NCBI GenBank assembly: GCA_965219995.1
Contig: CBDCOX010000002.1
Span: forward strand, 4,160,001 to 4,224,000
From: Candidatus Latescibacterota bacterium
GTDB lineage: Bacteria; Latescibacterota; UBA2968; GCA-2709665
Reading direction: 5' to 3'
Length of the DNA: 64,000 nt
Below are positions 7,061 to 38,624 of the stretch, one piece after another. Position 1 is the stretch's first letter. Each line of letters opens with the position of its first letter. The notes under the pieces are model-generated. The model was not told the DNA's origin and did not search any database. It was given only the letters and a program-made list of their open reading frames with translations. A program made the translations under genes and the position numbers.

Positions 7061-8137
7061 ATGGCTGAAATTCAAGACTTGAAAGAACCTGTTCCGGTAA
7101 CGATTATCAGCGGCTTTTTGGGAGCGGGCAAAACCTCCCTGCTCAACCATATTCTCAGCGCCGACCACGGGTTGCGCGTGGCGGTATTGGTCAACGATTT
7201 TGGAGAGATTAACATTGACGCCGCGTTAGTCTCTGGCGTCTCTGGGGAATCCACCATAAACCTTTCCAACGGGTGTATCTGTTGCTCGATTCGCAACGAC
7301 CTGCTTGAGGCAACGGTTCAACTGATTGAATGCCCAAACCCGCCGGAGTATATCGTCGTTGAAACAAGCGGCGTATCTGACCCTGTGGCGGTTTCACTGA
7401 CCTTTTTGGCTACCGAATTGCAGTCTCGGACGCGAGTGGACAGTGTGCTGACCGTGGTAGATGCGGAGCAGATTTACCTGGTGAACGAGGAGCATCGCAG
7501 ACTCGCAATAGACCAGATCACGATGGCAGATGTCCTGGTGCTAAACAAGCTTGACCTGGTCAATGATGAAAAGCGGGAGGAATTGGCGAACTTTGTCAGA
7601 GACCTCGTTCCGGGAGCGCGTATCCTTCAGGCTACATATGGTAAGATTCCGCTCGATCTGGCACTCGGTGTCGGGACATACGACCCCCAGCGCTTTTCGG
7701 GAAAATCGGGTTTGGACGTTCACATTCATGCTGACGGCGAGGCGCAAGAACACGACCATGCCGACCATACGCTTGTTTTCAATACGTGGTGCTATACGAC
7801 TGACAAACCTCTGTCACGTGGGGCCGTGCGTGACGCGGTGAAGAACTTACCCGCGACCATTTACCGCGCCAAAGGGTTTGTTTACCTCTCCGATGTTCCC
7901 GGTCGGAAGGGAATCGTCCACGTTGCCGGCAAACGGGCGCGTCTGATCATGGGTGAGCCGTGGGGCGACGAGAAACCGGGAACACAGTTGGTTTTTATCG
8001 GTGAGGCAGGTGGAATCGACGATTGCGAATTGCAATCGCGCTTTGATGCGTGCCAAACGGAAAAGGATACTCACCAGGACACATCGTTTGATGCGGCTTT
8101 TGAATTGCTTCGGGAGCTTGGGATTACAGCGAAATAA
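7061..8137 (+). CDS. COG0523/CobW-family G3E GTPase (metallochaperone)
   Basis: GFLGAGKT, VNDFGEINID, GCICC, ETSG and NKLD motifs, His-containing linker, CobW_C (RAKG...LVFIG). Confidence 0.93.
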   Translation: MAEIQDLKEPVPVTIISGFLGAGKTSLLNHILSADHGLRVAVLVNDFGEINIDAALVSGVSGESTINLSNGCICCSIRNDLLEATVQLIECPNPPEYIVVETSGVSDPVAVSLTFLATELQSRTRVDSVLTVVDAEQIYLVNEEHRRLAIDQITMADVLVLNKLDLVNDEKREELANFVRDLVPGARILQATYGKIPLDLALGVGTYDPQRFSGKSGLDVHIHADGEAQEHDHADHTLVFNTWCYTTDKPLSRGAVRDAVKNLPATIYRAKGFVYLSDVPGRKGIVHVAGKRARLIMGEPWGDEKPGTQLVFIGEAGGIDDCELQSRFDACQTEKDTHQDTSFDAAFELLRELGITAK

Positions 8138-8292
8138 ACCGAGTATGGCAAGACCGGCAACCAATACACAGATTCAAATGGAATCTTAACTCCATCAGAC
8201 AATTTCCAGCGGTGCGGTGACGCCTTCCCGTAAAAACTCTCATTGACGCGAGAACGTCATCTCCGTTTTTTCTAAGGGACAAGACACCGACG

Positions 8293-8328
8293 ACCCCTTC
8301 CCCCTTCCGTCAGGAAGGGGGAAGGGGT
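8293..8328. repeat. REP-like perfect hairpin (16-bp stem)
   Basis: ACCCCTTCCCCCTTCC-GTCA-GGAAGGGGGAAGGGGT; related hairpin near 62617. Confidence 0.6.
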
Positions 8329-8448
8329 TCTTTCTCGAAGGCGGTGAGGAGGGGAAAGAGACATTGATTCGGTTCCCGCCCGGAACCGGGTTCCAATGAG
8401 CGAGCGGATTGAAGGGGGCCTGGTGTACATTCTGGAGGTTGATATCAG

Positions 8449-9423
8449 ATGAAAGTCTTGTACCTGAACGTACCGAATATGCTGCAGCCGTGGTACGAAG
8501 ATTTCAGGACTGCGGTCGGCGAGGGGCATACGGTCTGCCTGTACGATCCGGCAAAACCCATGGCGCCGCAGTTTCAGGACGTGGAGGTGGTGGTGGACCA
8601 GGGGGGATCGGTGGGCACCCGGGCCCTGATCGACGCCGCGCTTTCAGCGCGCGTGAAGCTGTGGCAGGTGCTGGGCACGGGGGTGGACCACGTGGACGTG
8701 GCGTATTTCCTCGAGAACGGCCTCACGCTTGCCAATACGCCAGGCCTGTTCAGCGCGGTGGCGCTGGCGGAGCACGCGATGTTCCTGATGCTCCATTTCG
8801 CGAAGCGCTTCGACCAGCACGTCCGGAATATCCGGTCGAAGGCGTTTTACTTTCCACTGAGCGAGGAACTGGCGGGAAAGACGCTGGGTCTGGTGGGGCT
8901 GGGCGCGAGCGGGCAGGCGCTCGCGGCCAGGGCGAAGTCGATGGGGATGCGCATTGCGGCCGTCGACGCGGTGGAGATCCCGCGGGAAAAGCTGGACGAC
9001 CTGGGCGTGGAGGTGTTTGCGGCGCCGCCGGAACTTGAAACCGTGCTCGCGCAGGCGGACTACGTGTCGCTGCACGTGCCGCTGACGTCGAAGACGCGGC
9101 ACCTGATCGACCGGCGGGCGCTGGGGGCGATGAAGCCTTCGGCGGTGCTGATCAACGTGGCCAGGGGCGAAATCGCGGATGAGGCCGCGCTGGTCGATGC
9201 GTTGAGGAGCGGGCGCATCCGGGGTGCAGGGCTGGATGTGTTCGCGGAAGAGCCGTTGCCTCCCGACCATCCGTTCCTGCAACTGTCGAACGTGGTGGCC
9301 ACACCGCATACCGCCGGACAGACCTATGGCACGTCGAGGCGGCGAGGGGAGGCTTGCGCGGAGAACGTGGATCGGATCGCGCGGGGGCTGGAACCGCTGT
9401 ACCGGATTACAGGGGTGGGCTGA
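8449..9423 (+). CDS. D-isomer-specific 2-hydroxyacid dehydrogenase
   Basis: GLVGLGASG, HVPLT, LINVARG, GLDVFAEEP and TPHTAG motifs. Confidence 0.93.
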   Translation: MKVLYLNVPNMLQPWYEDFRTAVGEGHTVCLYDPAKPMAPQFQDVEVVVDQGGSVGTRALIDAALSARVKLWQVLGTGVDHVDVAYFLENGLTLANTPGLFSAVALAEHAMFLMLHFAKRFDQHVRNIRSKAFYFPLSEELAGKTLGLVGLGASGQALAARAKSMGMRIAAVDAVEIPREKLDDLGVEVFAAPPELETVLAQADYVSLHVPLTSKTRHLIDRRALGAMKPSAVLINVARGEIADEAALVDALRSGRIRGAGLDVFAEEPLPPDHPFLQLSNVVATPHTAGQTYGTSRRRGEACAENVDRIARGLEPLYRITGVG

Positions 9424-10238: not shown

Positions 10239-10419
10239 ACCCCACCCCGAGTTCAACGCTCCGTTGTTGGCAGACGCCCCCTGCGGGACTCCCGATCGTC
10301 GTCCCTGCACGACGGTTGTCCGCTCCGAGCCGATCCCCGATAGAACCCAGCCCCCAGCATTCTGCGAGCATCGCGTCTACGCTACACTGTGGGGCACGTA
10401 CCAACGCAATACTGCACAT

Positions 10420-10448
10420 TTGCACAGTTGCATGCAATGTGTTATATT
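10420..10448 (+). promoter_or_regulatory. Sigma70 promoter of the Ubl operon with overlapping palindromes
   Basis: TTGCAC-N17-TATATT with TGn extension; overlapped by CACATT...AATGTG and TTGCATGCAA palindromes. Confidence 0.55.
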
Positions 10449-10477
10449 AATGTGAGTGTACGTGGCGGGAGCGAAAT

Positions 10478-10729
10478 ATGTCGGAAAAGGAACACGACTA
10501 CATCAAGGAAGCGGCGAGCATGTCGATTCCGGCGACTGCGGTGGATCTGGCATCGAATCGGGCGATTGGTGAGCGCATCACCGAGTTGACACAAGTAATC
10601 GATCCCTATTCATCTGTTATGGACACGATCTTCCGCGCCGGGAGCATCACGCACGCCATTCGACAAATTGGTCATCTGGTTCTGACACCGGAAGGACAGT
10701 GTGTGTTGACCGTACGTGCAGGACACTAG
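10478..10729 (+). CDS. Hypothetical 83-aa protein leading the Ubl operon
   Basis: ORF with GGGAG RBS just after the predicted promoter; no motif recognised. Confidence 0.45.
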   Translation: MSEKEHDYIKEAASMSIPATAVDLASNRAIGERITELTQVIDPYSSVMDTIFRAGSITHAIRQIGHLVLTPEGQCVLTVRAGH

Positions 10730-10773: not shown

Positions 10774-11067
10774 ATGGTGCAAGAACCTGGAAACGGCGAT
10801 GGACCCATCGGACCGACGGGGATCGTAAAGGAACTGACCATCTACATCAATGCTCGGTCGGCGCTGTGGGACAAACCGACCATTAGCTTTGCACAAGTTG
10901 TCGAACAGTGGAACAAAATCGATCCAGATCGACGCGTGATAGGTGATCTTCCGGGCATTGACTGGACGGCGAAGGACGGAACGAAGGGGATTTTCTATCC
11001 GTCCGATAACCCAATGGACGTGGTTGATGAACTGTCGTTCACGATTGACGACTCGTATCTCGCGTAG
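10774..11067 (+). CDS. Multiubiquitin-domain (ubiquitin-like beta-grasp) protein
   Basis: RBS AGGAGG; TIYINAR..W....ISFAQVV and M.V.D..SF.I pattern of the multiubiquitin family; immediately upstream of a ThiF gene. Confidence 0.72.
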   Translation: MVQEPGNGDGPIGPTGIVKELTIYINARSALWDKPTISFAQVVEQWNKIDPDRRVIGDLPGIDWTAKDGTKGIFYPSDNPMDVVDELSFTIDDSYLA

Positions 11068-11075
11068 GGAAGACT

Positions 11076-12212
11076 GTGTCAGAACATGAGTCACGGGCTC
11101 GTTATGAAGCGGAGCGGCGCGAATGGAAAATCGAGCGTCGAGACTTAGAAATAGGTGCATTGGGAGTACCATGTTTTGTCGCACCGAATGTCGCAGGCGA
11201 ATGTCACATCTGGGTAGGGACTGCATCTGACTCGGACCAACTCGAAGCGAACCATGAATGGCAGCAAGGCGCTTTGCACGCGGCCATAATCCGAGGTCTT
11301 TCCGACGGCAGATTGTACGACCGATCTGGCACGGAGTTGACAGATGGGGTAATTGGAAGATCCCCTTCCAGCCTCAGTCTATCGATCAAGCTGACAGGCC
11401 GCGACTATGAGGATGCATGGGAGGCATTAAACAATTACGTCAAGCAGATATACGCGCTGTTCCTTGGCGGATCCGCATCGAGCGGGGAAGCGGCTCCACG
11501 CCCATATACATTCGATGTGCCTGGTGACCATCTGCCGGAAGCAGTCGAGTGGAGGGCTCTGGTAGCTCAAGAGCGTGTGGCGATTGTCGGACTTGGCGGT
11601 GTCGGCGCATGGATAGCAGACTCGGTTGTCAAGGCGGATCCTCGTGAGGTTTATGGTTGGGACTACGACTGCATAGAGCCCAAAAACATACTTCGCATGC
11701 CAGGTGGACTCGATCCGAACGTCTGGATCGGTAGGCCAAAGACCGAGTGGTTCCAAGAGACCTACTCCATAATACACAAGAACGTACATGGCCATAATGT
11801 AAAGGTACTCGCCGAAAACGTCCAAGACGTCGTTGATAGAACCACTTTCGCCTTCGTAGCCGTGGACGATGCGGACGCCCGGATGATGGTATGCGACGCG
11901 CTGGCCAACGCCAGAATCCCGTTCGTCGTGGCAGGACTCTCATTATTGCGTATTGACAAGAGAGTCAAGGTTTCCATGCGGATAGTAACCGCCCATGTCG
12001 GTGTGTCCTCTTGGAGAGAGGCTATCCCTCAAGTTGGCCGGGCGGGACAGGACGACTACGGCAGCCTTGACTTGCCCGACGTCTACTCAATGGCTGCGGG
12101 TTGGGCGATTCAGTCGTGGCGAAAGATGCGCGGCCAATTCTGGCAGGAGAAAAGCGAAGAGTGCCTAGTCTATCGTGCTCGTGAGCAGTCTCTCATATTG
12201 AGAGAGGTCTAA
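11076..12212 (+). CDS. ThiF/E1-like adenylyltransferase with N-terminal DUF6791-like (E2-like) domain
   Basis: VAIVGLGGVG, D.D.IEPKNILR.PG, K.E, FVAVDD..AR and DDYG motifs; N-terminal LSIK...DY.D....L..Y resembles DUF6791. Confidence 0.85.
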   Translation: MSEHESRARYEAERREWKIERRDLEIGALGVPCFVAPNVAGECHIWVGTASDSDQLEANHEWQQGALHAAIIRGLSDGRLYDRSGTELTDGVIGRSPSSLSLSIKLTGRDYEDAWEALNNYVKQIYALFLGGSASSGEAAPRPYTFDVPGDHLPEAVEWRALVAQERVAIVGLGGVGAWIADSVVKADPREVYGWDYDCIEPKNILRMPGGLDPNVWIGRPKTEWFQETYSIIHKNVHGHNVKVLAENVQDVVDRTTFAFVAVDDADARMMVCDALANARIPFVVAGLSLLRIDKRVKVSMRIVTAHVGVSSWREAIPQVGRAGQDDYGSLDLPDVYSMAAGWAIQSWRKMRGQFWQEKSEECLVYRAREQSLILREV

Positions 12213-12288
12213 AGTGTTCTCTTGTAGATGGAGGAAGGCAGGAAAACGTGATTCTCATCCTAACTATGTTTTTAGGAACCGAGAGTCA

Positions 12289-12609
12289 ATGGTACTGAAG
12301 CCAGTGTTTGTTGAAACAATCCCGCAAATACCCGAAATGGAAGAGGGGACGCTTTACGTCAGCATGAGGTTCGCCGTCCTTTCCCACTTTTGTCCATGCG
12401 GGTGTGGTCGTCTAGTCGACGTGACGCTGGATCCTACGACTCGTAGTCTGACCTACGATGGCGAGTATCTGACTTTAGAACCTTCAATCGGGGTCAAGTT
12501 CCCGTGTAGAAGCCATTACTCGATTATTCGGAATGAGATCATCTGGTACCCGCCAATCTCGGAATCGCAAGTCAGTTGGTACAAACGTGTATGGGAGAGA
12601 TGGAGGTAG
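12289..12609 (+). CDS. DUF6527 family protein (putative Ubl peptidase)
   Basis: PVFVETIP..EEGTLYVS, HFCPCGCG and LEPSIG..PCRSHY.I..N.I.W motifs. Confidence 0.85.
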   Translation: MVLKPVFVETIPQIPEMEEGTLYVSMRFAVLSHFCPCGCGRLVDVTLDPTTRSLTYDGEYLTLEPSIGVKFPCRSHYSIIRNEIIWYPPISESQVSWYKRVWERWR

Positions 12610-12707
12610 CCAAGAGTCTCTCTCGCTCTCATTTTCCGCCTGTTATAGTCAGGACTCCGCTGCTCTCGCTTTGTGTCCACTTAGCACCTAAATCCGGTAG
12701 CAAACCT

Positions 12708-13772
12708 ATGTCTCTGAATGAAAACCTGCGAAAAGCCAGGCGGCAAAAGATCGACGAGTTCTACACACAGCTTTCCGACATCGAGAACGAGCTGCGCCAC
12801 TACGCCGGACTCTTCCAAGGCAAGGTCGTATACTGCAATTGCGACGATCCCCGTGTCTCCAACTTTTTCCACTTCTTCTCGTACAACTTCGAGCGCCTGG
12901 GACTGAAGCGACTCATTACCGCCTGCTACAAGAACCAGGAACGCGATCTGTTCAGCCGTCACGATTCGGAGCGGGCGATTTGGCTCGAATACCAGGGGAG
13001 CGCGAAGGGTGCCAGGGAGCCTGACGTTGGGGATATTGGAATTCGTGAGTTTGAAGGAGACGGGGATTTCCGCAGTGCGGAATGCATCGAGCTTCTGAAG
13101 CAAGCGGACATCGTAGTGACCAACCCGCCGTTTTCGCTGTTCCGCGAATACGTCGCCCAACTGGTGCAATACGGCAAGAAGTTCCTGATCATCGGGAGTC
13201 AAAACGCCATCACGTACAAGGAGGTTTTCCCTCTAATCAAGGACAATAAGATGTGGCTTGGTGTCACCCCGAAAGGCCAAGATATGCTATTCGACGTGCC
13301 AGAGGACTACGCGAAGGAACTGGTGGCGACCGCAAAGGAGGGGAGCGCATACAGAGTCGTCGACGGGGTTATCAAAGGTCGGTTGGGTAACGCGGCCTGG
13401 TTCACCAATCTAGACCATAAGAAGCGCCATGAGGAATTGATCCTCTACAAACGCTACTCGCCGGAGGAATACCCGGCCTACGACAATTACAATGCGATCA
13501 ACGTGGACAAGGTCGCGGAGATCCCTATGGATTGGGACGGAGCGATGGGGGTGCCGGTCACGTTTCTGAACAAGCACAATCCAGAGCAGTTTGAGATCAT
13601 CGGGCTAACGGCAAGCGCCGACCGCTACGGCCTGAAAACGAAAAAATACACCGTGGCAGATGCTCCAAACTATAGCTATCTGAATAGCCGAGAAGGGGGG
13701 GTCATGAGGATGGGAAGCCGATATACGAGCACCTATAGGCGCCTTCTGGTTAAGAAAGTCCCGCCGCAATGA
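12708..13772 (+). CDS. Adenine-specific DNA methyltransferase, EcoRI family
   Basis: DEFYTQ, YCNCDDP, GDFRS and VTNPPFSLFRE (motif IV), MGVPVTFL. Confidence 0.92.
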   Translation: MSLNENLRKARRQKIDEFYTQLSDIENELRHYAGLFQGKVVYCNCDDPRVSNFFHFFSYNFERLGLKRLITACYKNQERDLFSRHDSERAIWLEYQGSAKGAREPDVGDIGIREFEGDGDFRSAECIELLKQADIVVTNPPFSLFREYVAQLVQYGKKFLIIGSQNAITYKEVFPLIKDNKMWLGVTPKGQDMLFDVPEDYAKELVATAKEGSAYRVVDGVIKGRLGNAAWFTNLDHKKRHEELILYKRYSPEEYPAYDNYNAINVDKVAEIPMDWDGAMGVPVTFLNKHNPEQFEIIGLTASADRYGLKTKKYTVADAPNYSYLNSREGGVMRMGSRYTSTYRRLLVKKVPPQ

Positions 13773-14863
13773 AAATTGACCTGAACGAGATCACGATCCG
13801 CGACCTTGTGGAGGACTACCATGACGACGGCGAAGGCGGGGTGCGCGGCTATGGCGGCAAGCTCGACATCCGACCGTCGTTTCAGCGCGAGTTCGTCTAC
13901 AGGGACAAGCAGCGCGATGCGGTGATCGAGACGATCAATAAAGGCTTTCCACTCAATGTGATGTATTGGGCCGTGCGCCATGACGGAACGTATGAGGTCA
14001 TCGACGGCCAGCAGCGCACGATCTCTGCGGCGCAGTACGTGGAAGGCGACTACTCCCTTGACGGAAGGTATTTCCACAACCTGCAAGACGACGAGCGGGA
14101 GAAGATTCTCAATTACGAATTGCAGGTTTACGTCTGCGATGGAACCGATAGCGAAAAACTGGCTTGGTTCAGGATCATCAACATTGCAGGGGAGAAGCTG
14201 ACTGACCAGGAGTTGCGGAACGCGGTCTATGCCGGAACGTGGGTGTCCGACGCAAAGCGGCATTTCAGCCGGAAGGGGGCTGCCTGCCCAGCGTATGCGA
14301 TTGGTAGCCGGTATCTGAATGGCAGAGCGGAGCGCCAGGAGTACCTCGAAACAGCCATCCAATGGATCAAGGACGAGGGCCAGACAGTCGAGGACTACAT
14401 GGCCGCCCATCAGCCTGACAAGACCGCAACCGCCTTGTGGAGTCACTTTCAGGCGGTCATCAACCGTGTTAAAGCGGTCTTCCCGAAGTATCGCAAGTTC
14501 ATGAAGGGCGTGGATTGGGGAGGGCTTTACAGGCAACTCAAAGACGAAAGCCTGGATCCGGAAGCGCTTGAAATCGACGTTGCCCGCCTGATGATGGACG
14601 ACGATGTCACAAGGAAGGCGGGCATCTACCCGTATCTCCTCACCGGTGAGGAAAAGCATCTCAACATTCGCGCCTTCTCCAACGCCATGAAGCAGAGGGC
14701 GTTCGAAATGCAAAACGGCGTCTGCAAGTCATGCGGGGAGGCGTTTGAGATATCGGAAATGGAGGCCGACCACATCAAACCTTGGTCGGAGGGCGGCAAG
14801 ACTGACGAACAGAATTGCCAAATGCTTTGCAAGCCGTGCAATCGCAGAAAATCCAATAAATGA
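13769..14863 (+). CDS. DUF262 (ParB/GmrS-like) plus HNH restriction endonuclease
   Basis: FQREFVY, IDGQQR and F..IN motifs; C-terminal CxxC..EADHIKPW..GG.T...NCQMLCKPCN; ATGA-coupled to the MTase. Confidence 0.9.
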   Translation: MKIDLNEITIRDLVEDYHDDGEGGVRGYGGKLDIRPSFQREFVYRDKQRDAVIETINKGFPLNVMYWAVRHDGTYEVIDGQQRTISAAQYVEGDYSLDGRYFHNLQDDEREKILNYELQVYVCDGTDSEKLAWFRIINIAGEKLTDQELRNAVYAGTWVSDAKRHFSRKGAACPAYAIGSRYLNGRAERQEYLETAIQWIKDEGQTVEDYMAAHQPDKTATALWSHFQAVINRVKAVFPKYRKFMKGVDWGGLYRQLKDESLDPEALEIDVARLMMDDDVTRKAGIYPYLLTGEEKHLNIRAFSNAMKQRAFEMQNGVCKSCGEAFEISEMEADHIKPWSEGGKTDEQNCQMLCKPCNRRKSNK

Positions 14864-33705: not shown

Positions 33706-35187
<1,482 letters not shown>

Positions 35188-35590
35188 TTATCGGAAAATC
35201 CGGGTTGTAATCCGCCCTTTTCAAACCGGGCCGAATATACACAGAAACAGGAGTTGCGTAAAGGGTAAATTTCGCTAGAAAACGGGTCTGCTCCAGTGTC
35301 GCTTTGGTGGCTATCCAGGGTAAACGTGAAACGGACCTCGGCCGTCGTCGGGAAACGCGAGGTCTACGACTTGATCGAATGGGTATTGTTCTTTGACGTG
35401 TGGTTAGCGTGTGTCGTGGAAGATGATGTCGAATCCTTTGAGGGTTTCTGGCTCGGCCTTTGAGACTCCAACCGCATAACGTATTGTTGCGGACCTCGAT
35501 TCGGGTTTAAGTATCGATGTTCTCTTGGATAATATCCCGTTTTGGCGTATAACCCTGGTTACCGCGGGCATGCATAATATACAACTAAAA

Positions 35591-35657
35591 AATAGCTATT
35601 AAAAGATTAATATAAATATATTTTTTATTTGACAAATAGCTGCTTTTTGGTTATTGT
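35591..35657 (+). promoter_or_regulatory. AT-rich promoter/operator of the RHH-GNAT-XRE cassette
   Basis: TTGACA(35629)-N17-TATTGT; AATAGCTATT palindrome and repeated AAATAGCT. Confidence 0.6.
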
Positions 35658-35697
35658 TTTCTGCATAATCTCCAGACGATCAAAGGGGGACGAATTG

Positions 35698-35910
35698 ATG
35701 GGCGCCAAGAGGACAATGACACTTAACCTCACAGTAGCAGAGATGGATGTGCTGGAAGAACTGAGCGCAAAGAAAGAGCTAAGCAAGACTGCCCTTTTGC
35801 GTCAGGCATTGCGGATATATCAATTGATCGAGGTAAGGCTTGAAAGTGGCGCAAAGCTGTTCTTCGAGGATGAGAAGACCGAGAAAAAGGCCGAGGTCAT
35901 GCTGCTGTGA
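35698..35910 (+). CDS. Ribbon-helix-helix (CopG-like) protein
   Basis: RBS AAAGGGGG; TMTLNL beta-strand followed by LEELSAKKELSKTALLRQALRIY. Confidence 0.8.
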   Translation: MGAKRTMTLNLTVAEMDVLEELSAKKELSKTALLRQALRIYQLIEVRLESGAKLFFEDEKTEKKAEVMLL

Positions 35911-36542
35911 CCGCGGCGATTTCGGTAGTCCATCTCTTCAACGTGGCTCGCGGCGAATCGGAAGCTGCCGAGCTGTCCGATGCCATCACGGAGCGGCACC
36001 TCGCTGATTGGGAAGGCGAGTGGATGCCCGCCTTGTTCAACGCGATACGGCGCCTCAAGCGAAAGGGGGTTCCGACGCGGGAATGGCCGCAGAGCAGCCA
36101 TTGGAATTGGCGCAGAAAAGTTAACGCGCTATACGGGATTCTGGCCAGTCCGGGTTTCAGCATCGTCTGCAATGGAATGACGCAGGGTCTGATGATGGTT
36201 GACACGGCGACGCACAAATGTCGAGTCGATGCCCAGAAGGGCAAGCACCTCGTGTACGTTGAGTACGTCGAAAACGCACCCTGGAATCGCCCGGAGTTAT
36301 TCGATCCGCCGCGATTCCGCGGTGTTGGAAGCATTCTAATCAGGGCTGCCGTCGCACTGAGCGAGGAGTTGGAGTTTCGGGGACGAATCGGCCTCCATTC
36401 GCTGCCTCAGGCAGATAGCTTTTATGCCAATACCTGTGGCATGACCGATCTGGGGACCGATCTCGACTATGAGGGTTTGCGCTACTTCGAGATGACACCC
36501 AAACAGGCGCGGGCTTTCGTTACGAGGGGGAGATTGCCATGA
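35907..36542 (+). CDS. GNAT-fold acetyltransferase
   Basis: LVYVEYVENAPWN, acetyl-CoA motif RFRGVGSILI, GRIGLHSLP.A..FY...GM; GTGA overlap with the upstream gene. Confidence 0.85.
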   Translation: MTAAISVVHLFNVARGESEAAELSDAITERHLADWEGEWMPALFNAIRRLKRKGVPTREWPQSSHWNWRRKVNALYGILASPGFSIVCNGMTQGLMMVDTATHKCRVDAQKGKHLVYVEYVENAPWNRPELFDPPRFRGVGSILIRAAVALSEELEFRGRIGLHSLPQADSFYANTCGMTDLGTDLDYEGLRYFEMTPKQARAFVTRGRLP

Positions 36543-37021
36543 AGTTGAGAATCAGTAAGGAGTGGTGCACTCGGATGGCAGAACTGGAGGGAGACACCGA
36601 AATCGGAGCCGGTCGCCTGGCAATCGATCCGCATTTTGACGGTGAAACTATCCCCGTCGTCGACAGATTCGACGAACCCAATATCGCCTTCGGTCGTTTA
36701 AACAACCTCATGCGCCGCCGCCGAGGCTTGAGCATTGAGGGGCTTGCCATGGCGGCGAACGTGACCGTAACAGAACTGGTCGAGATCGAAAGCGACGTTC
36801 GTTATAAGCCGAAGTTGCAGACGATCGATAAACTGGCCAGCTACTTCAATTTGCCTCGGTCCGGTCTAATGCAGATGGCAGGACTGACAGCTTCGAAGGA
36901 TGCACGCCTGTCTGAACGGGCAGTTCGCTATGTCGCCCGTGCGGAGTCGACTGCGGAACTGACGCCTGAAGAGAACGCGGCGTTGGAAGGGTTCATGGCT
37001 GTTCTCAGCGAGCAGAAATAG
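36539..37021 (+). CDS. XRE-family HTH transcriptional regulator with N-terminal extension
   Basis: FGRL..LMRRRRGLSIEGLA..ANV....LVEIE....P....I.KLA.YF; ATGA overlap with the upstream gene. Confidence 0.85.
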   Translation: MKLRISKEWCTRMAELEGDTEIGAGRLAIDPHFDGETIPVVDRFDEPNIAFGRLNNLMRRRRGLSIEGLAMAANVTVTELVEIESDVRYKPKLQTIDKLASYFNLPRSGLMQMAGLTASKDARLSERAVRYVARAESTAELTPEENAALEGFMAVLSEQK

Positions 37022-37155
37022 CTGAAACGCATTGTCGTTGTACTACGTTGACCCGGGGTGTCGAGTTCTTCGCCGAAATTCACCTCAACGTTGCTTTCTC
37101 GGACTCACTCAAAGAATCCCTTTGCAGATGTGGTGTTCCGTCGTTGATAATCCTT

Positions 37156-38238
37156 TCATTTCATCAGATGGATGCTGCCATTCATACTCCGCAGCTTGAC
37201 AACGGCGTCGCCGCCGTCTCCGACGTCGCCCTTCAGCCGGTTTCTGGATTTGCGCCCAGCTTCGACGGCAAAATCGCTGCGGACGCGCCCGTTGCTCGTT
37301 TTGGCGTCAATATGGCCCGACCAGTCGGCTGGAAGCGTCAGTTTGACGGAGCCGTTGTTTGTGGCGGCGGTTACCTGGCCGAGAATTTCACTCACCTCCA
37401 TCTTGATCGATCCGTTTGTGGTCAGCAGCTTCGCGGCGTCGACCAGCCGTTTGGCCTGGACTGAGATCGATCCGTTGACCGTCTGGGCGGTAATCGGGCC
37501 GGTTTCCGCATCCAGTTTCACCGAGCCATTGACGCTTTCCGCGTCGACCGCCCCCTGGGTTCCGCGGGACCTGATTCCGCCCTGGACGGTGCTGAGACGC
37601 AATGCCATCGCCCGCGGCGTTTCGATTTCATAGCGAATGACCACATTGACGCCGCCGGGCGGCGTGGGATGTTCGGCGGAAACGCGAAGCTCGTCGCCGA
37701 CCTGTTCGGCGCGGACCTCGACTTCCCGTTCGAAATCTTCCGTTACGGAACGTCGCCCGTGGACCGCTTTCCACGCGCGGACAACGATCCGGTCGCTGTC
37801 CGTTCCCGTGAGGGAGATCGAGCCGTTGACGGTTTCCGCGCGGACCGCCGCGATGTTCTCGGCATCGAATGTCCATTCCTGCGGATCCCCGGCCCCCCGT
37901 TCTCCGGTGTCCCGTTCCCATCTGGCCGCGGTATCGGCGACGGTCGACGTCGCCTGATCGACAGCCTCGTTCACCATCTTCCCGATGTCCTGCCACCGGA
38001 CCGACTCCATCGCTTTGCCCACCTCGTTCTCGATTTCCCGTCCCAGGTCGCTGAAGGCCTCAGTGAATCTGTCGAAGTTGCCCTTCCTCCCCCCGCGTCG
38101 CACCTCTTCCGTGTCGGTTTCTTCGTCCAGGCGGGACGGCTCATCGAGCGCGCGCAATAACATATCGGCCTCTTCGGGGTTGATTTTCCCGTCCGAAAGC
38201 ATTTTGAGGATTTCCAGTCTTTCCGTGCTCATCGTCAT
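37156..38238 (-). CDS. SHOCT-like N terminus plus DUF4097 beta-strand repeat protein (YvlB/LiaX-like)
   Basis: ERLEILKMLSDGKINPEEA..LL.AL; repeated T.NGSI units. Confidence 0.85.
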   Translation of the reverse strand: MTMSTERLEILKMLSDGKINPEEADMLLRALDEPSRLDEETDTEEVRRGGRKGNFDRFTEAFSDLGREIENEVGKAMESVRWQDIGKMVNEAVDQATSTVADTAARWERDTGERGAGDPQEWTFDAENIAAVRAETVNGSISLTGTDSDRIVVRAWKAVHGRRSVTEDFEREVEVRAEQVGDELRVSAEHPTPPGGVNVVIRYEIETPRAMALRLSTVQGGIRSRGTQGAVDAESVNGSVKLDAETGPITAQTVNGSISVQAKRLVDAAKLLTTNGSIKMEVSEILGQVTAATNNGSVKLTLPADWSGHIDAKTSNGRVRSDFAVEAGRKSRNRLKGDVGDGGDAVVKLRSMNGSIHLMK

Positions 38239-38624
38239 TTCCTCCCCATTTGCTTTATCTGTTCGGCCGCTTCCTCCGCGGATATCTCTCCTTCATTTAG
38301 CCGTTTCAGGATCTCGCGGCGTTTGTCGGAGCTTTCACCGGGAGCGGGCGCATCGGCCCGGACTTCGTAGCCAAGTTCCGCGATGACGGCGTTCAGGCGG
38401 TTGCGAACGGTGGGGTAGGAGATCCCCAGTTCGCGCTCCATTTCCTTGATATTGCCGCGGTTCTTGACGAAACTCTCGATAAAGTCGAGGCTTTGCTGCT
38501 GCAGGCGGCAGAAGGGACAAGTGGAATATTGACTCTCGATTCTGGTGTGGCAGGTGTGACAATGCAGACCGGATATCGTCAGTTCCCCGCCGCACGTCGG
38601 ACATTTCTCCAATACTTTCCGCAC
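38235..38624 (-). CDS. DUF2089 family Zn-ribbon/HTH protein
   Basis: CPTCG...C..C.T.I, RGNIKEMERELGISYPTVRNRL and a C-terminal SHOCT-like segment. Confidence 0.9.
   Translation of the reverse strand: MRKVLEKCPTCGGELTISGLHCHTCHTRIESQYSTCPFCRLQQQSLDFIESFVKNRGNIKEMERELGISYPTVRNRLNAVIAELGYEVRADAPAPGESSDKRREILKRLNEGEISAEEAAEQIKQMGRK

Follow-up and report, generated by a model that had tools for sequence, protein, structure and literature searches.

An RHH–GNAT–XRE gene triad in a Latescibacterota genome, the probable remaining core of a four-gene switch of defence operons

Comparison with 96 non-duplicate related loci reveals that the canonical unit to which the cassette described here belongs comprises four genes, encoding a ribbon-helix-helix (RHH) protein, a GNAT-fold protein, an XRE-type repressor and an ImmA/IrrE (M78) peptidase, and that the triad in the window (the whole stretch of 64,000 nucleotides that was analysed) is the remaining core of this unit. 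Judged from its sequence, the window cassette appears to be a relic that has lost the peptidase and the defence operon and has kept three genes intact. Taken as a whole, the best explanation, and on balance a probable one, is that the triad is what remains of a four-gene defence-operon switch in which RHH, GNAT and XRE have the roles inferred below.

The three ORFs are intact and overlap one another (Table 1): the GTG start of the GNAT gene lies within the GTGA at 35907–35910 that forms the RHH/GNAT overlap, and the ATG start of the XRE gene lies within the ATGA at 36539–36542 that forms the GNAT/XRE overlap. The initial annotation had described these ORFs, their overlaps and their place between ilvC and a DUF4097 gene correctly. 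When window positions 35100–37300 were compared by blastn with five congeneric species (L118–L122), homology ended at 35272–35284 and restarted at 37162–37164; in these species ilvC directly adjoins DUF4097, with ∼75 nt at the junction compared with ∼1.88 kb in the window, and this empty junction justifies the term insert. No direct repeat of at least 6 nt was found when the sequences at the insert ends were inspected by eye. Of the earlier description of an AT-rich insert, the insert itself is thus real, but the AT-richness is confined to the promoter region (GC 0.40 at 35400–35850 versus 0.60–0.65 in the flanks), the cassette genes having a GC of 0.54–0.59. Seven of the genus's 15 species do not have the cassette, and the ilvC/DUF4097 junction is clean in all five of them that were inspected; among the eight insert-carrying species, all three ORFs are intact in seven and the GNAT gene is frameshifted in one. 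The cassette is therefore dispensable, a point against the best explanation. Metatranscriptomic contigs from one library of a related strain, which differ from the window in ∼1–7% of letters in the aligned pieces and give partial coverage whose gaps carry no meaning, partly cover the pseudogene region and the GNAT and XRE genes, and provide a weak hint of transcription, with DNA carry-over possible.

Table 1. Features of the cassette locus and its flanks (positions of the window)
Feature	Position	Strand	Basis
ilvC (KARI_N/KARI_C)	33706–35175	-	Pfam
∼1.88-kb insert relative to the empty ilvC/DUF4097 junction of five congeneric species	35280–37155 (ends ±∼10 nt)		blastn
Multiubiquitin (BubA-type Ubl) pseudogene remnant, in-frame stop	35320–35571	-	tblastn
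Promoter-like site TTAATA-17-TATTAT, towards the Ubl remnant	35574–35602	-	9/12, consensus match only
Operator repeat 1, AAATAGCTATT, core palindrome TAGCTA at 35593–35598	35590–35600		family-wide TAGCT[AG] array
Sigma-70-type promoter-like site TTGACA-17-TATTGT, for the cassette	35629–35657	+	10/12 consensus matches
Operator repeat 2, AAATAGCTG, core TAGCTG at 35637–35642	35634–35642		family-wide TAGCT[AG] array
RHH protein, 70 aa, ATG start	35698–35910	+	Pfam RHH_1, E=4.8e-4
GNAT-fold acyltransferase-like protein, 211 aa, GTG start	35907–36542	+	AlphaFold2 model, Foldseek, VIA-align
XRE/CapH-like repressor, 160 aa, ATG start	36539–37021	+	Pfam HTH_3/HTH_19/HTH_31
XRE residues 127–136 (RAVRYVARAE), drifted from family E-A-V-R-F-A-A-R-S-E	36917–36946	+	alignment
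DUF4097 gene	37156–38238	-	Pfam

The tallies that define the four-gene unit describe the closer part of the family, because the best 80 of 546 relatives, with 52–74% identity, were kept from the search with a 12-row alignment; the GNAT family as a whole numbers ∼1,370 clusters at 50% identity. Of 88 evaluable loci, 85 have an RHH gene immediately before the GNAT gene, and 80 of 86 have a full XRE gene immediately after it, bearing out the strongly conserved three-gene order that had been proposed. A peptidase gene lies within 120 nt after the XRE gene in 59 of 71 evaluable loci and is full length in 49 of the 60 loci that leave 1 kb or more for it; the 4-nt overlaps are found in 78 of 88 loci (RHH/GNAT) and 61 of 92 (GNAT/XRE). 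The peptidase is ∼310 aa long and matches Pfam Peptidase_M78, and its profile matches IrrE (3dte, E=0.0033) and CapP (7t5t, E=0.14). Head-to-head with the cassette stand 26 Bub-type operons, seven CBASS operons and three other ThiF-containing/E1-type operons among 37 loci, with no such operon at one, so that the suspected link of the family to Ubl (Bub) and other defence operons is a physical adjacency in 36 of the 37. The operon kinds that accompany the cassette are Bub I, Bub II, CBASS III, JAB/ThiF and DUF2188, the CBASS partners being type III operons of SMODS/bacHORMA_1/AAA/SAVED composition. The cassette is also carried by plasmids of Alpha- and Gammaproteobacteria and turns up in many metagenomes, and annotated plasmids show the same divergent arrangement. 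Of 54 matching plasmid records, nine were inspected (H1, H3, H4, H6, H7, H8, H16, H18 and H20). On a Methylomagnum plasmid that carries the cassette, a canonical DUF1778–GNAT pair is present separately. Cyanobacterial relatives (L014, L015 and H20; 35–40% identity) were left out of the tallies, having another downstream partner; no match to RHH or XRE was found at L014 or L015, and neither gene is annotated beside H20.

Remains of the larger unit are still readable around the window triad. The N-terminal piece of the Ubl pseudogene is a 55-aa ORF at 35404–35571, and residues 65–104 of the Multi_ubiq protein of a type II Bub operon (L023) match window positions 35439–35320 by tblastn with 50% identity over 40 aa and one stop (E=6.8e-10 in a small database). 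L001 gave a similar match, and no significant Ubl remnant was found in L003, L004 or L011. No divergent immune operon was met beside the window cassette apart from this pseudogene fragment. As had been noted from the window alone, no IrrE/CapP-type peptidase gene follows the XRE gene, where most related loci have one; a 24-aa stub, 50–57% identical to the peptidase N terminus, is present in the sister species L003 and L004 and is not recognisable in the window or in L001 and L002. With a cassette-type peptidase as protein query, no CapP-like gene was found in the 98.6%-complete genome. The genome does contain three unrelated PF06114 genes, far from the cassette. Estimates of dN/dS of 0.05–0.08 for RHH, 0.12–0.27 for GNAT and 0.20–0.37 for XRE (dS 0.3–1.5) indicate that the three retained genes are under purifying selection.

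The region upstream of the RHH gene carries what appears to be the operator of the family. Consistent with the AT-rich, repeat-bearing promoter described previously, AAATAGCT is found at 35590–35597 and again at 35634–35641, within an 18-nt inverted repeat, and the window contains 12 copies of ATAGCTR where 3.6 are expected, with none of 100 shuffles reaching 12. The second operator repeat lies between the −35 and −10 hexamers, 44 bp (4 × 11) from the first, and TTGACA is found at the equivalent position in relatives; the promoter-like site on the opposite strand is possibly a vestigial divergent promoter. Across 77 unique loci, TAGCT[AG] occurs upstream of RHH at 2.04 per 200 nt compared with 0.06 in the background, and neighbouring pairs are spaced by 11 bp in 58 of 87 cases and by 22 bp in 17. 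These patterns point to TAGCTA hexamers spaced 11 bp as the family's operator, of which two words are left in the window. Probably, RHH dimers would bind this array, whose spacing is one helical turn, and autorepress the cassette; the alternative binder is XRE.

The RHH protein consists of a basic N-terminal ribbon-helix-helix part (residues 1–48, pI 9.4) followed by a conserved acidic tail, G-x-KLFFEDE-x-TKEKAEVMLL (residues 49–70, pI 4.7), and mean column identity in an alignment of 40 sequences is 80%. Its Pfam RHH_1 match stands at the cut-off (20.4 versus 20.5 bits), DUF1778 (the TacA family) was not matched at E up to 1, and PADLOC returned no match for RHH or GNAT. The middle protein is predicted to have a GNAT fold and belongs to a clade without its own Pfam model. 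The window protein has no match of its own in Pfam, NCBIfam or PADLOC, and a profile of the family found none among PDB sequences at E up to 1, solved toxins included; of 81 relatives, 27 weakly match Acetyltransf_10 (best 7.6e-6) and seven match Acetyltransf_1. An AlphaFold2 model built with an alignment reached a pLDDT of 96.6 and was used in place of a single-sequence model (pLDDT 38.5), which was discarded. VIA-align related it to 1yre at Z 13.9 (rmsd 3.0, 167 residues aligned) and to 211 chains at Z of at least 8, all 50 of those listed being GNATs, and Foldseek gave a probability of 1.00 to RimJ and NatD. The structural neighbours form a tie among many GNATs, toxins included: protein N-terminal and lysine acetyltransferases (RimJ, NatD and Rv0998) head the Foldseek matches, and the tied top tier of VIA-align includes TacT3 (Z 13.1) and the toxin 7byy (Z 12.9). 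In GNATs, motif A (R/Q-x-x-G-x-G/A) binds acetyl-CoA, and motif B carries a tyrosine; R136-F-R-G139-V-G141 and A169-x-x-F-Y173 are readable in the cassette protein, with G141 and Y173 invariant in 81 sequences. The HWNW and APWN motifs that the initial annotation had singled out turned out to be common to the whole family (W68, A124 and P125 invariant, W66, W126 and N127 at 90% or more in the 81 sequences), and the window protein keeps every invariant residue (W39, W68, A124, P125, G141, Y173 and E195).

RHH and GNAT are closely tied to each other across the family. None of 88 loci has a full-length GNAT gene without at least an RHH tail ORF just upstream (L042 retains the tail), and an intact RHH gene stands beside a broken GNAT gene in G047, L065/L066 and L082. 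A predicted RHH–GNAT complex scored an ipSAE of 0.53 compared with 0.00 for the best of three controls, with a contact agreement between runs of at least 95% and a partner pLDDT of at least 84, and lends weak support to the binding of GNAT by RHH. Of 157 solved complexes, 116 reached the pass mark, as did two of 215 mismatched pairs, but passing scores up to 0.60 were obtained for only 18 of the 157 solved complexes and for both mismatches that passed, so that a score of 0.53 falls in a band where, unless the prior is strong, wrong predictions outnumber right ones; moreover, because like complexes (TacA–TacT and AtaR–AtaT) are already solved, the pass may reflect memory.

GNAT/RHH type II toxin-antitoxin systems (TacAT, AtaRT, KacAT, ItaRT and GmvAT) arrest growth by acetylating aminoacyl-tRNA, and the antitoxin blocks the toxin. 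Like them, the cassette has a small RHH gene with a 4-nt overlap into the GNAT gene that follows, an RHH protein with a C-terminal tail and a GNAT fold near TacT3, TacT2 and AtaT (Z 11.9–13.1). The conserved acidic RHH tail may keep GNAT inactive, and the two may form an antitoxin/toxin-like pair whose presence hinders loss of the module, a step that we put a little short of probable; that RHH and GNAT outlived the defence operon would follow from such a pair. The comparison also speaks against a toxin-antitoxin-like reading, since the RHH protein is not of the DUF1778 family, the GNAT protein has no sequence match to the solved toxins, its pI is near neutral and protein acetyltransferases stand first in Foldseek. 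Unlike the known toxins, the cassette GNAT is longer (∼210 aa), with an N-terminal β-hairpin and a long helix, and the pair forms part of a regulator operon instead of standing alone.

The third protein appears, from its profile matches, to be a CapH/ImmR-type repressor, in agreement with the earlier suggestion, and its relatives carry the ImmA/IrrE peptidase that the window lacks. It comprises a clade-specific acidic N-terminal extension (residues 1–50), an HTH (residues ∼52–110) and a C-terminal part; Pfam HTH_3 is matched by residues 58–108 (E=7.9e-8), and profile matches include SinR (5e-5), the CapH N-terminal domain 7t5u (1.8e-4), ImmR 7t8i and DdrO, with only the generic HTH_VI and RmrA models matched in PADLOC. 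Residues 127–136 are presumed to be the region that the peptidase recognises or cleaves. In 44 loci outside the peptidase-less set, E127 is found in 42, F131 in 42, A132 and A133 in all 44, and R134 and S135 in 41 each. Drift of this motif is restricted to the peptidase-less genus: the window protein has R127, Y131, V132 and A135, and L003 and L004 have P134.

CapH+CapP is one of three described regulator families that induce bacterial immune operons after DNA damage. In published work (Lau et al. 2022, 10.1101/2022.04.27.489752; Calloji et al. 2026, 10.64898/2026.05.16.725639), the HTH repressor CapH is cleaved, at F82|R83, by an ssDNA-activated M78 metallopeptidase, CapP, the gene pair stands divergent to CBASS, Bub/6e and other immune operons, and DdrO–IrrE/PprI and ImmR–ImmA are related pairs. 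The CapH HTH spans residues 2–67, with no N-terminal extension (Lau et al. 2022, 10.1101/2022.04.27.489752), and Ye et al. (10.1101/2024.11.21.623953) report CapH+CapP next to 168 of 544 Bub operons. The four-gene norm, head-to-head with Bub, CBASS and E1-type operons, makes the cassette's XRE and peptidase resemble CapH+CapP: in relatives the XRE gene is followed by that of the ∼310-aa M78 peptidase, divergently from type III CBASS or Bub, and a conserved aromatic-containing motif stands shortly after the HTH, roughly at the CapH cut position. By contrast, the cassette has RHH and GNAT before the repressor in the same operon, its repressor carries the 50-residue extension, and the window copy has neither a peptidase nor an immune operon. 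The searched text of these papers makes no mention of an RHH protein or acetyltransferase, and literature searches for a GNAT or acetyltransferase with CapH/CapP, CBASS, multiubiquitin or ImmA/IrrE likewise brought up nothing relevant; the supplementary tables of the Bub papers may contain such genes. Bub (6E/DUF6527) itself is linked to the cassette as its commonest divergent partner and by the BubA-type fragment in the window, but the cassette is a regulator rather than conjugation machinery and accompanies CBASS and other operons as well. We consider it an even question whether XRE was formerly cut by the peptidase around R-F-A-A-R and is now a non-cleavable second repressor, kept for RHH/GNAT or for the same promoter.

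In a rather unlikely alternative, GNAT would be non-toxic and would acetylate a component of the switch, with RHH acting only as a co-repressor or scaffold; the target would most likely be the N-terminal extension or an HTH lysine of XRE, or else RHH or the peptidase, and acetylation would provide a second input, or a reset, for a CapH/CapP-type repressor beside proteolysis. That GNAT is always co-operonic with XRE, that XRE was retained with RHH and GNAT after loss of the peptidase, and that the conserved acidic extension is absent from published CapH are consistent with such regulatory acetylation, as are the best Foldseek matches. Toxins that acetylate tRNA are basic, and the family median pI of 6.1 gives no indication that GNAT binds RNA. 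Further, the partner operons vary, which makes a GNAT target inside the cassette or the host more likely than one in the effector operon. However, the structural matches tie with toxins, and an inhibitor/enzyme pair is a better fit to the tight RHH–GNAT coupling and to the broken GNAT genes beside intact RHH genes. Similarly doubtful is the proposition that the immune-operon switch of a large CapH/CapP-type clade has four components, of which RHH and GNAT form an integral half that has gone unreported, with an RHH-restrained acetyltransferase acting on the repressor extension or the peptidase. If it is true, the firing of Bub or CBASS operons is timed jointly by acetylation and ssDNA-triggered proteolysis, and the window is a natural dissection in which the RHH–GNAT–XRE sub-module is viable and selected alone.

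It is improbable that the triad is functionless in the window genome and merely slow to erode. Consistent with such decay are the degraded flanks on both sides, the drifted XRE motif and the losses within the genus, including the frameshifted GNAT gene; yet the ORFs are intact in nearly all insert-carrying species, dN/dS is well under 1 at the dS values given above, and the invariant GNAT residues, the promoter and both operator words are all retained.

The initial annotation had also suggested control of a Ubl operon 25 kb away, and the window does contain a type II Bub-like operon (Multi_ubiq (weak)/ThiF/DUF6527) at 10774–12609. Relatives' cassettes control Bub operons in cis, and RHH and/or XRE might now control this operon or another defence locus in trans, but we regard this as very improbable: ATAGCTR was not found at 10.0–10.8 kb, the repeats at 10410–10450 are of a TGCA type and not TAGCTA, and the E1 of the operon is only 29% identical to the E1s beside the cassette. 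Nor is the tandem operator (TAGCTA-N5-TAGCTA, up to one mismatch) any commoner than a control pattern, with one occurrence in the 5.4-Mb genome versus 13 for the reversed pattern. Least credible of all is the tripartite toxin-antitoxin system put forward initially, taken as self-contained and without connection to defence regulation, since the gene order and overlaps are toxin-antitoxin-like but in the family the overwhelming pattern is a four-gene cassette next to a defence operon and the window, a peptidase-less relic, bears the scars of that context in its Ubl pseudogene and, in sister species, the peptidase stub.

With the triad read as the core of a defence-operon switch, a large, horizontally mobile subset of CapH+CapP-type regulators carries two more strictly conserved genes, RHH and GNAT, and has a defined operator of TAGCTA hexamers spaced 11 bp apart. 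Testable hypotheses follow, namely a toxin-antitoxin-like lock or an acetylation input. The value of the window lies mainly in the persistence under selection of a three-gene core without peptidase and defence operon. Cultured hosts with the full system are available in plasmid pCAR3 of Novosphingobium sp. KA1 and the plasmids of Methylocystis bryophila.

The initial annotation had called the middle protein of the cassette a GNAT. Because Pfam, NCBIfam, and PADLOC gave no match to this 211-aa protein, the label needed testing. A structure model built from an 81-row alignment reached a pLDDT of 96.6 and a pTM of 0.92 (pLDDT 38.5 from the single sequence), and Foldseek matched it to GNATs at probability 1.00, with RimJ (6c37) and NatD (7kpu/4u9w) at the top (E ~1e-5). 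In an all-against-all structural search, the best match was PA3270 (1yre, Z 13.9), followed by a long tied group of GNATs that includes TacT3 (6g96, Z 13.1), the toxin 7byy (12.9), RimJ (12.5), TacT2 (12.3), and AtaT (11.9). The protein carries R136-x-x-G139-x-G141 and Y173, which we take to be motif A and the motif B tyrosine, respectively; G141 and Y173 are invariant in 81 sequences, and 27 of the 81 relatives weakly match Acetyltransf_10. Overall, the fold model, structural matches, motifs, and Acetyltransf_10 matches uphold the label and identify a predicted GNAT-fold enzyme, whose clade has no family model and, by a profile search of PDB sequences, no solved relative.

The coordinates of the three same-strand genes and their GTGA/ATGA overlaps were exactly as first annotated (see the table), and a purine-rich stretch lies 8–14 nt 5' of each start codon. 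The AT-rich promoter with repeats was also confirmed: GC content is 0.40 versus 0.60–0.65 in the flanks, and AAATAGCT occurs twice, 44 bp apart, within an 18-nt inverted repeat. Public metagenome runs of sponges and corals, deposited by several studies, include contigs with identical or near-identical copies of 35100–37300.

Features of the cassette, its surroundings, and the distant Ubl operon (window positions)
Feature	Position	Strand	Remarks
Ubl gene	10774-11067		weak Multi_ubiq
E1 gene	11076-12212		ThiF
DUF6527 gene	12214-12609		DUF6527
EcoRI-type adenine methylase	12576-13772		after DUF6527 gene
GmrSD_N/HNH endonuclease	13769-14863		after methylase
ilvC	33706-35175	-	Pfam-confirmed
Multi_ubiq pseudogene fragment	35439-35320	-	50% identity over 40 residues to L023 protein; in-frame stop
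Operator word 1	35593-35598	.	TAGCT[AG] word kept in window
Promoter-like site TTGACA-17-TATTGT	35629-35657	+	consensus match
Operator word 2	35637-35642	.	TAGCT[AG] word kept in window, between -35 and -10
RHH gene	35698-35910	+	70 aa; Pfam RHH_1 at cut-off, E=4.8e-4
GNAT-fold gene	35907-36542	+	211 aa; GTG start within GTGA
XRE gene	36539-37021	+	160 aa; ATG within ATGA; Pfam HTH_3/HTH_19/HTH_31, residues 52-115
DUF4097/SHOCT gene	37156-38238	-	Pfam
DUF2089 gene	38235-38624	-	Pfam

A word-indexed search with the GNAT protein returned 1,102 proteins at E ≤0.001, mostly 67–96% identical and of equal length, and an exhaustive search returned 1,372 clusters at 50% identity. Loci (L numbers) were gathered from 15 species genomes, from metagenomes (80 loci, the best 80 of 546 relatives, 52–74% identical, a limit that applies to every locus count below), and from nine annotated plasmid regions; duplicates (L008–L010, L016) and two distant cyanobacterial loci were left out of the tally, which kept 96 loci, the window included. 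The three-gene order that the initial annotation expected in homologues was found, with RHH directly upstream of GNAT in 85 of 88 evaluable loci and a full XRE directly downstream in 80 of 86. Its self-contained tripartite system was not: in 59 of 71 loci, a fourth gene lies ≤120 nt after XRE, and its product (∼310 aa, HEIGH motif, Pfam Peptidase_M78/IrrE match at E ~1e-7) is the IrrE partner for which a neighborhood survey had been proposed. Where at least 1 kb of sequence is available for it (60 loci), this peptidase is full length in 49. Among the 12 exceptions, seven have none (the window, L001–L004, L011, and L066), two have it displaced (L018, annotated ImmA/IrrE, and L035), and three have fragments (L069, L070, and L083). 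Among these loci, the norm is RHH-GNAT-XRE-peptidase, kept even on a Bradyrhizobium plasmid at 39% GNAT identity, and an autonomous tripartite unit is rejected.

Some distant relatives depart from this order. A second peptidase-less RHH-GNAT-HTH triad (38% GNAT identity) adjoins a DUF2188 gene on a Gemmobacter aquarius plasmid (L107), with an IS element and sul2 downstream at the expected peptidase position. Three cyanobacterial GNATs (35–40% identity) have no RHH or XRE beside them (no match in L014 and L015; neither annotated in L109) and precede a conserved ∼175–230-aa protein without a Pfam family.

We next consider the minus-strand reading frames upstream of RHH, scanned in the 37 cassette loci that offer ≥2.5 kb of sequence there (best 80 of 546 included; L038 and L079, near-duplicates of L037 and L072, omitted). 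A bacterial ubiquitination-like (Bub) operon (Multi_ubiq, Prok-E2_E, JAB-ThiF or DUF6791-ThiF, DUF6527) adjoins the cassette in 26 loci, a type III-like CBASS operon (SMODS, bacHORMA_1, AAA, SAVED) in seven, and other ThiF-containing sets in three; one has nothing recognizable. Among annotated plasmids, those of Novosphingobium sp. KA1 (pCAR3), Methylomagnum, Nitratireductor, and Shinella pair the cassette with Bub operons; its neighbor is CBASS on the plasmids of Methylocystis and Methylobacterium, a ThiF and a JAB protein in Bradyrhizobium, and DUF2188 in Gemmobacter. The suggested ties of the family to defense regulation, and to Ubl operons in particular, are real.

According to Lau et al. 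(2022, 10.1101/2022.04.27.489752), CapH is an HTH repressor cleaved by the ssDNA-activated M78 peptidase CapP, and the cut (F82|R83) falls within the first helix beyond the HTH; Ye et al. (10.1101/2024.11.21.623953) place CapH+CapP beside 168 of 544 Bub operons. The position and partner operons of the cassette are those published for CapH+CapP, but the cassette adds the RHH+GNAT pair, and its XRE has a clade-specific 50-residue acidic extension that published CapH lacks. Profile searches with XRE (SinR, 5e-5; CapH N-terminal domain 7t5u, 1.8e-4; ImmR, 0.05; DdrO, 0.06) and the peptidase (IrrE 3dte, 0.0033; 8slm, 0.011; CapP 7t5t, 0.14) agree with a putative CapH/CapP kinship at the superfamily level. 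In the article texts of the Corbett-lab papers covered, no mention of acetyltransferase, GNAT, or ribbon-helix-helix was found, and a wider search of article texts found nothing relevant on RHH+GNAT with such regulators. We conclude that the family is a CapH/CapP-type regulator extended by an RHH+GNAT pair; its four-gene form, which is widespread and apparently undescribed, can be tested directly in cultured hosts. Four sphingomonad species (L007–L010) share RHH, Ubl, E1, DUF6527-type, and peptidase proteins at 100% identity, and the cassette proteins of the conjugative plasmid pCAR3 (L016) are 99–100% identical to theirs, which suggests very recent horizontal spread.

The window cassette is a peptidase-less, orphaned relic of this regulator. 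As first annotated, no IrrE/CapP peptidase adjoins it: none lies 3' of XRE, and a search of the 98.6%-complete genome with the cassette-type protein as query found none, the three PF06114 genes there being unrelated and far away. In two sister species (L003 and L004), a 24-residue stub, 50–57% identical to the peptidase N terminus, follows XRE; no such stub follows XRE in the window. The Multi_ubiq fragment matches the type II Bub locus L023 at E=6.8e-10 (small database), and L001 has the same remnant upstream. Of 168 genomes searched across the phylum, eight carry the GNAT, all of them from the genus of the window (8 of its 15 species, the window's own included), and in all eight the cassette lies between ilvC and DUF4097, never with a peptidase. 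Because ilvC directly adjoins DUF4097 in five GNAT-less species, the insert can be delimited to ∼1.88 kb (∼35280–37155), replacing ∼75 nt of the empty junction; no terminal direct repeat was found at its ends. The XRE motif E127-A-V-R-F131-A-A-R134-S-E, nearly invariant in 44 other loci (best 80 of 546 included), has drifted in the genus (R/G127, Y131, V132 in the window, P134 in L003 and L004, A/E135), which fits lost constraint from a putative cleavage.

The DUF2089 (zinc ribbon, HTH, SHOCT) and DUF4097 "toastrack" genes (37156–38624) overlap by 4 nt and adjoin ilvC throughout the genus, with or without the insert. The record title of L004, one of the eight GNAT-bearing genomes, names another phylum; Gemmatimonadota stands in one title of a genome that genome search places in the genus.

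Judging from substitution patterns, the triad is still under selection: dN/dS within the peptidase-less genus (dS 0.3–1.5) is 0.05–0.08 for RHH, 0.12–0.27 for GNAT, and 0.20–0.37 for XRE, the window GNAT keeps all invariant family residues, and the N-terminal extension of XRE is conserved. Against this, the insert is absent from 7 of 15 species, and in one species that has it (G047) GNAT is frameshifted, with RHH and XRE intact. Metatranscriptomic contigs from one library of a related strain cover 35327–35504, 35960–36462, and 36824–36974, a weak hint of transcription.

We tentatively read RHH+GNAT as a putative antitoxin/toxin-like pair, with a little under an even chance. The gene order and the 4-nt RHH/GNAT overlap (78 of 88 loci, best 80 of 546 included) point this way, as do the basic DNA-binding part of RHH and its acidic tail, which is almost invariant; in the same 88 loci, a full GNAT never occurs without at least the RHH tail ORF upstream. 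In L042 (1528–2918), RHH is split after ∼codon 44 by 1.2 kb of inserted sequence that encodes a 306-aa ThiF-like ORF, and the tail persists in a 54-aa ORF whose N terminus is new and which still overlaps the GNAT start. Further, a broken GNAT lies beside an intact RHH in three cases (L065/L066, L082, and the congeneric genome G047, where GNAT is frameshifted and RHH and XRE are intact), RHH+GNAT outlive decayed neighbors, and TacT-type toxins are among the structural matches tied at the top. Complex prediction was weakly supportive (ipSAE 0.53 versus 0.00 for the best of three controls; contact agreement between runs at least 95%, partner pLDDT at least 84); 116 of 157 solved complexes and 2 of 215 mismatched pairs pass the same mark, with only 18 of the 157 and both passing mismatches at ≤0.60. 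Because like complexes are solved, this pass may reflect recall by the predictor. However, RHH does not belong to DUF1778, no sequence similarity connects the GNAT with known toxins, the GNAT family pI is near neutral (median 6.1), the top Foldseek matches are protein acetyltransferases, and half of the genus does without the module. Some role other than toxicity or regulatory acetylation is somewhat unlikely. The main rival, regulatory acetylation of XRE by the GNAT, would suit the acidic extension of XRE and its retention with RHH and GNAT after peptidase loss, and we consider it unlikely. On the Methylomagnum ishizawai plasmid (L017), the four-gene cassette is followed 1 kb downstream by a canonical DUF1778+GNAT toxin-antitoxin pair (8051–8958), so the two GNAT/RHH types are separate families that occur side by side.

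In the 200 nt that precede RHH (77 unique regions, best 80 of 546 included), the word TAGCT[AG] or [CT]AGCTA averages 2.04 per 200 nt versus 0.06 in the rest of the loci. Spacing between adjacent words is 11 bp in 58 of 87 cases and 22 bp in another 17, and the words lie 70–110 nt before the RHH start, just 5' of TTGACA. In the window, the position of word 2 would suit autorepression. Short palindromes repeated per helical turn are the kind of site bound by cooperative RHH dimers (Arc, MetJ, CopG, omega), and for this reason RHH is the probable binder of the TAGCTA array, by somewhat better than an even chance, with XRE as the alternative. The initial annotation had also suggested that the cassette may regulate the Ubl operon 25 kb away. 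The existence of this operon is confirmed (weak Multi_ubiq; ThiF, 1.5e-12; DUF6527, 9.4e-17), and it is only remotely related to those accompanying the cassette. Because the operator word is absent from its upstream side (10.0–10.8 kb) and the tandem operator shows no enrichment in the rest of the genome, such control finds no support. The operon, type II Bub-like, belongs to a small defense island (10774–14863). An 83-aa ORF upstream (10478–10729) matched no family, and 10400–10450 carries TGCA-rich repeats.
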